Of a stretch of DNA of 32,000 bases, positions 17,264 to 17,314 are shown one piece after another. The notes under the pieces are model-generated. The model had not been told where the DNA came from and ran no database searches. It saw nothing but the letters and a program-made list of their open reading frames with translations. The number at the start of each line of letters is the position of its first letter. Position 1 is the first letter of the stretch. Made by a program: the position numbers and the translations under genes. The stretch is from Pyrodictium abyssi (GTDB lineage Archaea > Thermoproteota > Thermoprotei_A > Sulfolobales > Pyrodictiaceae), in contig NZ_AP028907.1 of the NCBI RefSeq assembly GCF_036323395.1, positions 990,001 through 1,022,000 on the forward strand, given 5' to 3'.

Positions 17264-17267
17264 TCAT

Positions 17268-17314
17268 CCCCCCCCCCCCCCCCCCCCCCCCCCCCCCCCC
17301 CCCCCCCCCCCCCC
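17268..17314. repeat. uninterrupted 47-nt poly(C) on the plus strand, poly(G) on the minus strand
   Basis: Counted directly: 17268-17270 (3) + 17271-17310 (40) + 17311-17314 (4). It ends 4 nt upstream of the GTG start of copy 1 on the minus strand and directly abuts an out-of-frame ATG (17267..17265). Confidence 0.98.

Follow-up and report, generated by a model that had tools for sequence, protein, structure and literature searches.

A 47-base poly-G tract at the start codon of a small gene of Pyrodictium abyssi as a candidate slippage-prone cis-regulator

In the window analyzed here, the whole stretch of 32,000 bases taken from the chromosome of Pyrodictium abyssi AV2 (NZ_AP028907.1; 10.1101/2024.12.30.630787), an uninterrupted run of 47 guanines lies on the sense strand of the small gene PABY_11090, four nucleotides (nt) before its GTG start codon, and a shorter pure run occupies the equivalent position in the only ortholog of this gene that was found. 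Comparison of the two loci leads us to favor, tentatively, the reading that the tract may be a hypermutable cis-regulatory element whose length tunes or silences PABY_11090. A more specific version of this reading, in which an old poly-G tract would serve as an archaeal contingency locus that switches or grades one member of a Pyrodictiaceae-specific family near 100 °C, via transcription blockage or promoter displacement, seems rather doubtful. PABY_11090 has four paralogs in the window and is referred to below as copy 1; the ortholog locus is referred to as L001. The features that carry the argument are the following (window coordinates unless L001 is named):

16856..17263, minus strand: open reading frame (ORF) of copy 1, PABY_11090, 135 amino acids (aa), GTG start at 17263..17261 (BES81542.1, WP_338252711.1)
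17264..17267, minus strand: ATGA spacer between G47 and GTG, from manual translation; its counterpart in L001 is TA
17268..17314, minus strand: uninterrupted homopolymer G47 on the sense (non-template) strand of copy 1, C47 on the plus strand
L001 7985-7998: homopolymer G14 on the sense strand of the ortholog, 2 nt before its GTG GAT AC start

The 47-nt run had originally been predicted to be uninterrupted and to stand 4 nt before the start of copy 1, and a regular-expression scan and a reading of the window agree on both points; the span that was given for it, 17264..17314, comprises the ATGA spacer together with the tract. On the minus strand the order is ...AACGCTTC-G47-ATGA-GTG GAT ACA, in which the bases 5′ of the run read ...GGTACAACGCTTC and those after the GTG read GAT ACA CTC, and GenBank (BES81542.1) and RefSeq (WP_338252711.1) agree on this GTG as the start codon. 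The spacer contributes a TGA that terminates the frame of copy 1 and, in a different frame, an ATG (17267..17265) with which an ORF of 15 codons begins. C47 at 17268..17314 is the sole homopolymer of at least 7 bases in the window, all other runs being of 6 bases or fewer. Given a frequency of G of about 0.30, base composition predicts about 9e-21 runs of at least 47 bases and about 2.8 runs of at least 8 bases per window. The 47-base run is thus far beyond chance, and ordinary long runs in the window are, if anything, depleted rather than enriched.

The ortholog, P0002, shares 59–60% amino-acid identity with copy 1, vs 30–41% for the paralogs in the window. It is encoded by two Logan contigs, one of which was used for the comparison: L001, an Illumina-based, independently assembled contig of 15.6 kb from a different organism (run SRR26701690), over a locus of 12.4 kb. 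Before the start codon L001 reads ...CTTATTCGC-G14-TA-GTG GAT ACG, and the equivalent junctions are G14-TA-GTGGATAC in L001 and G47-ATGA-GTGGATAC in P. abyssi; the comparison with a related organism that had been proposed together with the original prediction therefore uncovered a tract at the identical position. G14 is the only run of at least 7 bases in the 12.4-kb locus and is not an end artefact, because it is shorter than the k-mer of the assembler and lies in the interior of the contig. No further copy 1 ortholog was found beyond L001 when an alignment of six family sequences was searched against genome, viral and metagenome contigs and when proteins were searched by profile and by word index.

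The two organisms have diverged to the point at which synonymous sites of the gene are saturated (pS 0.74, dS ~3.3), with a pN of 0.25. The difference between pN and pS points to purifying selection on the copy 1 gene in both lineages. Over the 200 nt that precede the tracts, the two loci show no significant alignment (Smith-Waterman score 18, vs 16 +/- 2 for shuffled sequences). Moreover, the unit formed by the gene and the tract (16856..17314, corresponding to L001 7985..8444) is inverted in P. abyssi relative to two conserved flanking markers, namely a 98-nt element (window 16491..16588, L001 6709..6804) and a gene for a 265-aa helix-turn-helix-like protein (window 19789..20586, L001 8846..9574). 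Between copy 1 and the latter gene, P. abyssi has in addition an AbrB-like gene, copy 2 and a gene for a protein of 369 aa. Since the gene and the tract are inverted together with respect to their flanks, the tract goes with the gene rather than with a chromosomal position or with the AbrB-like neighbor. The tract has thus stayed attached to the 5′ end of the gene, in the same orientation, through a rearrangement and through the turnover of neutral DNA. Over the same divergence its length appears to have changed more than three-fold, from 14 to 47 bases or in the reverse direction. An uninterrupted run should not survive such divergence neutrally.

The promoter context of copy 1 differs from that of other genes in the window, which are preceded by archaeal TATA boxes of the form TTATAWA (e.g., CGCTTATAAAT before 962 and CGCTTTATAA before copy 3). 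One such gene, at 18606, has GTTATAAAA 28 nt ahead of it, which implies a leaderless mRNA. No TATA-like element was found within 30 nt of the copy 1 start, because this space is filled by the G residues. Weak TATA-like sequences on the minus strand occur at 17360..17353 (GTATAGAG, about 40 nt beyond the tract) and at 17405..17397 (GCTAAAATT, 90 nt beyond it). The original prediction had put the nearest TATA-like sequence, CTCTATAC, beyond the tract, and no convincing TATA box indeed lies between the tract and the gene; the sequence is located at 17353..17360, however, 2 nt off the quoted 17351..17358. From the lack of a TATA-like element within 30 nt of the start, we infer that the copy 1 transcript must start inside or upstream of the tract and thus carry or traverse the non-template G run. 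The motif GCTAAAA precedes the tract by 90 nt in P. abyssi and by 93 nt in L001, which is suggestive but not significant in local alignment. A further shared motif, AACGCTT upstream of both tracts, was considered as a remnant of a BRE/TATA element and set aside: CGCTT recurs some 43 times in the window, in most cases with no accompanying TATA box, and the sharing may be due to chance. A sigma-70 promoter scan is irrelevant for an archaeon.

A possible source of the tract is indicated by copy 3. In this paralog and its orthologs (L122-L124), a G-rich Shine-Dalgarno-like sequence, GGAGAGGG(G/A)-ATGGATAC, stands where copy 1 has its tract, directly before ATG GAT AC, and the tract of copy 1 probably arose by expansion of such a Shine-Dalgarno-like element, seen as GGAGAGGGG in copy 3. 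Pairing between CCUCC and a pure G run would be possible only through G-U wobble; the 3′ end of the 16S rRNA lies outside the window. An RNA element in the leader was not supported, as the leader had no match in Rfam even at E<=1 and folded no better than shuffled sequences (z = -0.39). An invertible segment was likewise dropped, because no inverted repeats were found flanking the unit of gene and tract.

Under the reading that we favor, replication slippage would change the length of the tract at high frequency, which is plausible because the group has no MutS/MutL mismatch repair; hyperthermophilic archaea are devoid of MutSL, and frameshifts of single bases in runs are prominent in their mutation spectrum (PMC4471258). 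The more than three-fold difference in tract length fits such slippage, as do three changes of +/-1 in short runs between two P. delaneyi strains, unless these are sequencing errors. The transcript for PABY_11090 would start upstream of or inside the tract, and the long non-template G run would attenuate expression in proportion to its length. Attenuation might come about through R-loop-mediated transcription blockage; through resistance of the tract to promoter melting, together with displacement of the TATA-like sequence out of the range of the start codon; or through sequestration, occlusion or mimicry of the ribosome-binding region. G14 would then correspond to a permissive or partly permissive state, and G47 to a strongly attenuated or silenced copy in a family of five. 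As to the first of these routes, G-rich homopurine tracts block transcription in vitro, via R-loops, only when they are on the non-template strand, and more strongly when they are longer and near the promoter (PMC3561996, PMC5499740). In spite of the inversion, the G run is found on the sense strand in either organism, which is the orientation needed for such blockage. Two hallmarks of simple-sequence-repeat (SSR) contingency loci are present: both tracts are perfect mononucleotide runs of at least about 8 bases (G47 and G14), and both are intergenic, 4 nt (window) or 2 nt (L001) before a conserved GTG GAT AC start. Of the explanations offered at the outset, a contingency switch thus gains from the combination of a fixed position with a changed length, although its translational frameshift form is excluded by the reading frames, and a replication or transcription barrier survives only as a possible mechanism, given that non-template G residues can block transcription.

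Several observations weigh against this reading. No upstream homopolymer was found in the other four paralogs of the window or in the homolog of P. delaneyi, and none was found in the metagenomic copy-3-like genes (L122-L124). The PABY_11090 product has neither a signal peptide nor any other typical hallmark of phase-variable proteins. The comparison covers two lineages only, and 47 vs 14 is a difference between lineages rather than variation within a species. The length of 47 nt is two- to five-fold above that of characterized bacterial phase-variation tracts and longer than a switch needs, and it is the length given in the deposited assembly. Finally, the tract could equally be leader, promoter interior or untranscribed DNA.

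Other explanations have to be set beside a slippage-prone cis-regulator. That the tract is a neutral by-product, i.e., that the G-rich ribosome-binding site of a dispensable paralog passed a slippage threshold and drifted without any regulatory role, seems unlikely to us but deserves serious consideration. The GGAGAGGGG of copy 3 provides a plausible seed at the homologous position, hyperthermophilic archaea have no MutSL, with frameshifts in runs prominent among their mutations (PMC4471258), three of the seven differences between P. delaneyi strains over 6.4 kb are changes of +/-1 in runs, and the reduced expression of one of five paralogs could be tolerated. On the other hand, both tracts are perfectly pure though neutral sites are saturated, the gene is under apparent purifying selection (pN 0.25 vs pS 0.74), and no other run of at least 7 bases occurs in about 44 kb of the two loci, so runaway expansion is no general tendency. 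It is less probable still that the tract is real but that its deposited length was inflated during assembly or polishing, or, at the extreme, that the entire tract is spurious. When 185,579 species genomes were scanned for G40, at least 120 stretches were returned. Among the 120 matches listed, 89 runs lay within 120 nt of an end of the sequence available, and many internal ones had implausible lengths of 60–680 nt in scaffolds or long-read metagenome-assembled genomes (MAGs). G/C runs of at least 40 bases in public drafts are therefore mostly artefacts, and the prior for an artefact is high for such runs in draft assemblies. The P. abyssi tract shares with these artefacts a pure G/C run of at least 40 bases, but, whereas in drafts they are found where contigs end or scaffolds are joined, it lies within a single finished chromosome of 2,224,219 bp, has unique sequence and intact genes on both sides, coincides with no contig end or join (the check that had been suggested with the original prediction) and has an orthologous counterpart in the interior of an independent, Illumina-based contig. 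In addition, long-read basecallers are more apt to shorten homopolymers than to lengthen them, which we count against an inflated length. Because the ortholog carries a tract at the same site and that of P. abyssi is interior to a complete chromosome, an artefact, as originally entertained, appears to be largely excluded for the existence of the tract, if not for its exact length; that the locus has no long tract at all is hardly to be expected.

The possibility that the tract acts as a structural element, with a G-quadruplex in DNA or RNA or an i-motif on the C strand serving as a thermostable roadblock, insulator or sensor irrespective of length, is improbable. Putative quadruplex-forming sequences occur widely in the genomes of archaea (PMC7565180, PMC12873603). 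G47 fits the quadruplex motif (four G runs of at least 3, loops of 1–7) many times over, as had been predicted, and ViennaRNA with its quadruplex term predicts, at both 37 and 75 °C, that the leader forms a seven-layer plus a three-layer quadruplex. The motif is not conserved in the ortholog, however, whose G14 allows two tetrads only and no three-tetrad intramolecular form, and at 97 °C, a temperature for which the model is not calibrated, it gives essentially no stabilization for either sequence; the capacity to form a quadruplex is therefore not the property that is conserved. A pure homopolymer is also a poor design for a defined fold, and i-motifs need acidic pH. A role as a fragile site or recombination breakpoint, in which the tract would mark or cause the inversion without any function in expression, is more improbable than that. 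Gene and tract are inverted with respect to L001, and detectable homology stops at the distal edge of the tract, but it also stops at the 3′ end of the gene, simply as a result of saturation of the intergenic DNA, and hence does not locate the breakpoint at the tract. The unit lacks flanking inverted repeats and, since both genomes have the tract on the same side of the gene, the tract predates the inversion. Least credible of all is a coding function, be it poly-glycine of an upstream ORF, an N-terminal extension or a translational frameshift switch. By manual translation, a frame that begins with an ATG at about 17390 would turn the tract into about 16 glycines, but it is terminated by the TGA within the ATGA spacer. 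The two frames entered with G46 or G48 run into a stop within 15 codons as well, so that a fusion to copy 1 does not result from any tract length. The in-frame stretch upstream of the L001 gene contains a TGA and lacks a start codon. Furthermore, no ORF of at least 60 aa crosses the tract on either strand of the window. The frameshift switch and the poly-glycine extension were accordingly excluded on the basis of the reading frames in both loci.

Among known systems, the tract of P. abyssi is most similar to the SSR contingency or “rheostat” loci of bacteria (PMC4081817, PMC8437040, PMC11868660, PMC4235727), such as the poly-G/C tracts of Campylobacter jejuni and Neisseria, the fim promoters of Bordetella and the T-tract “rheostat” of Helicobacter pylori sabA (PMC4081817). 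Common to both are a pure mononucleotide tract immediately 5′ of a gene that belongs to a multi-copy family, a fixed position with a length that varies among lineages, and a host with weak or no mismatch repair of slippage intermediates. By contrast, the tract of P. abyssi lies in the context of an archaeal TBP/TFB promoter at about 100 °C, is 47 nt long (14 in the ortholog) as against about 8–20 nt in bacteria, and abuts the start codon, whereas bacterial tracts are situated between promoter hexamers or inside the ORF. Its product is small and cytoplasmic-looking, whereas those of the bacterial loci are surface or restriction-modification proteins. The likeness is one of sequence and location, which makes the tract a candidate member of this class; population heterogeneity and an effect on expression are described for the bacterial systems.

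Two further bodies of work bear on the proposed mechanism. The R-loop blockage described by Belotserkovskii et al. (PMC3561996, PMC5499740) likewise involves tens of non-template G residues near the beginning of transcription, an orientation that is the same in both of our organisms; it was shown in vitro with T7 RNA polymerase and engineered templates, in contrast to an archaeal polymerase at high temperature at a natural locus. The instability of runs in archaea without MutSL, known from Sulfolobus mutation spectra (PMC4471258), shares with P. abyssi the setting of a crenarchaeal hyperthermophile in which G:C runs are the unstable class.

Variability of G:C runs in Pyrobaculum aerophilum was reportedly described by Fitz-Gibbon et al. 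in 2002. The Sulfolobus and Pyrobaculum reports concern short runs (less than about 10 nt) scattered as hotspots in coding DNA, whereas P. abyssi has a single, very long 5′ tract. No archaeal precedent for such a homopolymer switch was found in the literature searched. A preprint states that contingency loci have been described in archaea (PMC12633550), and a review of 2025 lists archaeal surveys of repeat-mediated switching as future work (PMC11868660).

The family to which copy 1 belongs is very small and lineage-specific. It is characterized by a C-[YF]-x-G motif followed by EGDC, and copy 1 and its four paralogs in the window, which are 30–41% identical to it, have an invariant C13, G16 and EGDC motif. 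A profile search of 1.84 billion representative proteins gave 14 matches at E<=1e-3, and word-index searches gave two matches, or 10 in their profile version; all of the family matches belong to P. abyssi, to P. delaneyi or to one of a few contigs from vent metagenomes. No match was found for the family in Pfam, NCBIfam or PADLOC, and an AF2 model of copy 1, of fair confidence (pLDDT 78), matched no PDB fold at E<0.1. No phage similarity of the region was found. The remaining members and the surroundings of the tract are as follows:

17315..17505, no strand: remainder of the 242-nt divergent intergenic region, with only weak TATA-like candidates for copy 1
17506..17856, plus strand: divergent neighbor PABY_11100, 116 aa, annotated, 192 nt from the tract
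17988..18386, minus strand: copy 2, PABY_11110, 132 aa, without an upstream tract
23898..24314, plus strand: copy 3, with promoter-like CGCTTTATAA about 55 nt upstream and GGAGAGGGA immediately 5′ of ATGGATAC, without a tract
24279..24716, minus strand: copy 4, 145 aa, without a tract
24962..25336, plus strand: copy 5, annotated shorter, with no canonical start ahead of the conserved motif, without a tract

The divergent gene at 17506 had been predicted to stand about 190 nt from the tract, which the measured distance of 192 nt confirms. PABY_11100 is named by UniRef as an AbrB/MazE/SpoVT-family DNA-binding protein; it has no Pfam match at E<=0.01 and does not adjoin the tract in L001. Copies 3, 4 and 5 are packed together (23898..25336), with a tail-to-tail overlap of 36 nt between copies 3 and 4 (24279..24314). 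In copy 5 a canonical start codon is lacking ahead of the C-F-T-G motif, so that this copy may be decaying or may use an unusual start. Beside this cluster, a protein with a weak Nmad3 (nucleotide-modification-associated) domain, which scores below the Pfam gathering threshold, is encoded at 22976..23767 on the minus strand.

Another member of the family, P0009 (46% identical to copy 1; L125 3440..3530, also on L126 and L127), was called too short by the gene finder, which placed the ATG downstream of the C-Y-S-G motif; A7-T stands directly before the ATG that is probably the true one. This A7-T gives a weak hint that the position abutting the start may tolerate or attract homopolymers. The MAG that carries P0009 is labeled “Aigarchaeota” by NCBI, and its synteny (C_GCAxxG, cytochrome b, eIF-1A, MFS) matches that of the P. 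abyssi window. A comparison of the P. delaneyi strains Su06 and Hulk (L128 vs L129, 6.4 kb) revealed seven differences, three of which are changes of +/-1 in A5, C5 and G6 runs and could be slippage mutations or sequencing errors. One of the differences is a 13-nt tandem duplication, and one changes the gene model of a PIN_2-domain protein.

Other parts of the window are of interest in their own right. The 98-nt element that served as a marker (16491..16588) is 84% identical between P. abyssi and L001, as compared with 66–80% for neighboring coding DNA. It is intergenic, begins with TAGCTATATG and has no Rfam match; in pattern searches, a 28-nt pattern from it was absent from metagenome contigs and a 24-nt pattern from viral contigs. 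It is thus a candidate for a small RNA gene or a conserved promoter. At 13839..13948 on the plus strand, Rfam detects (46 bits) a 110-nt tRNA that presumably contains an intron and was missed by ARAGORN. After this tRNA the GC content is about 0.49–0.50 over 2 kb, against 0.6–0.7 for the chromosome, and the next 6 kb, including the tract, are not collinear with L001; this stretch may be a variable or integrated island. An ORF of 1000 aa at 2454..5456 on the minus strand lies in a block of 36–42% GC, against 60–70% for the chromosome, has no match in Pfam, NCBIfam or PADLOC, and was probably acquired horizontally. A PaREP1-family protein is encoded at 10644..11093 on the minus strand, with a score below the Pfam gathering threshold.

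Repeat-mediated stochastic switching is a major adaptive strategy in host-associated bacteria, and its distribution in archaea is essentially unexplored. The locus described here is directly testable: the strain is in culture, an ortholog with a tract of different length is available, and archaeal in vitro transcription systems are established. It raises the questions of how a replisome that works without MutSL copies 47 consecutive G:C pairs, whether an archaeal RNA polymerase can pass them, and whether slippage provides hyperthermophiles with a means of bet-hedging. Even if the tract were invariant and inert, it would still offer a natural substrate for studies of the fidelity of homopolymer replication at extreme temperature. 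If the more specific reading as an archaeal contingency locus is true, the tract of PABY_11090 would be the first case described in Archaea of phase variation through a promoter-proximal homopolymer, and no other functional homopolymer tract in a prokaryotic chromosome would come near it in length.
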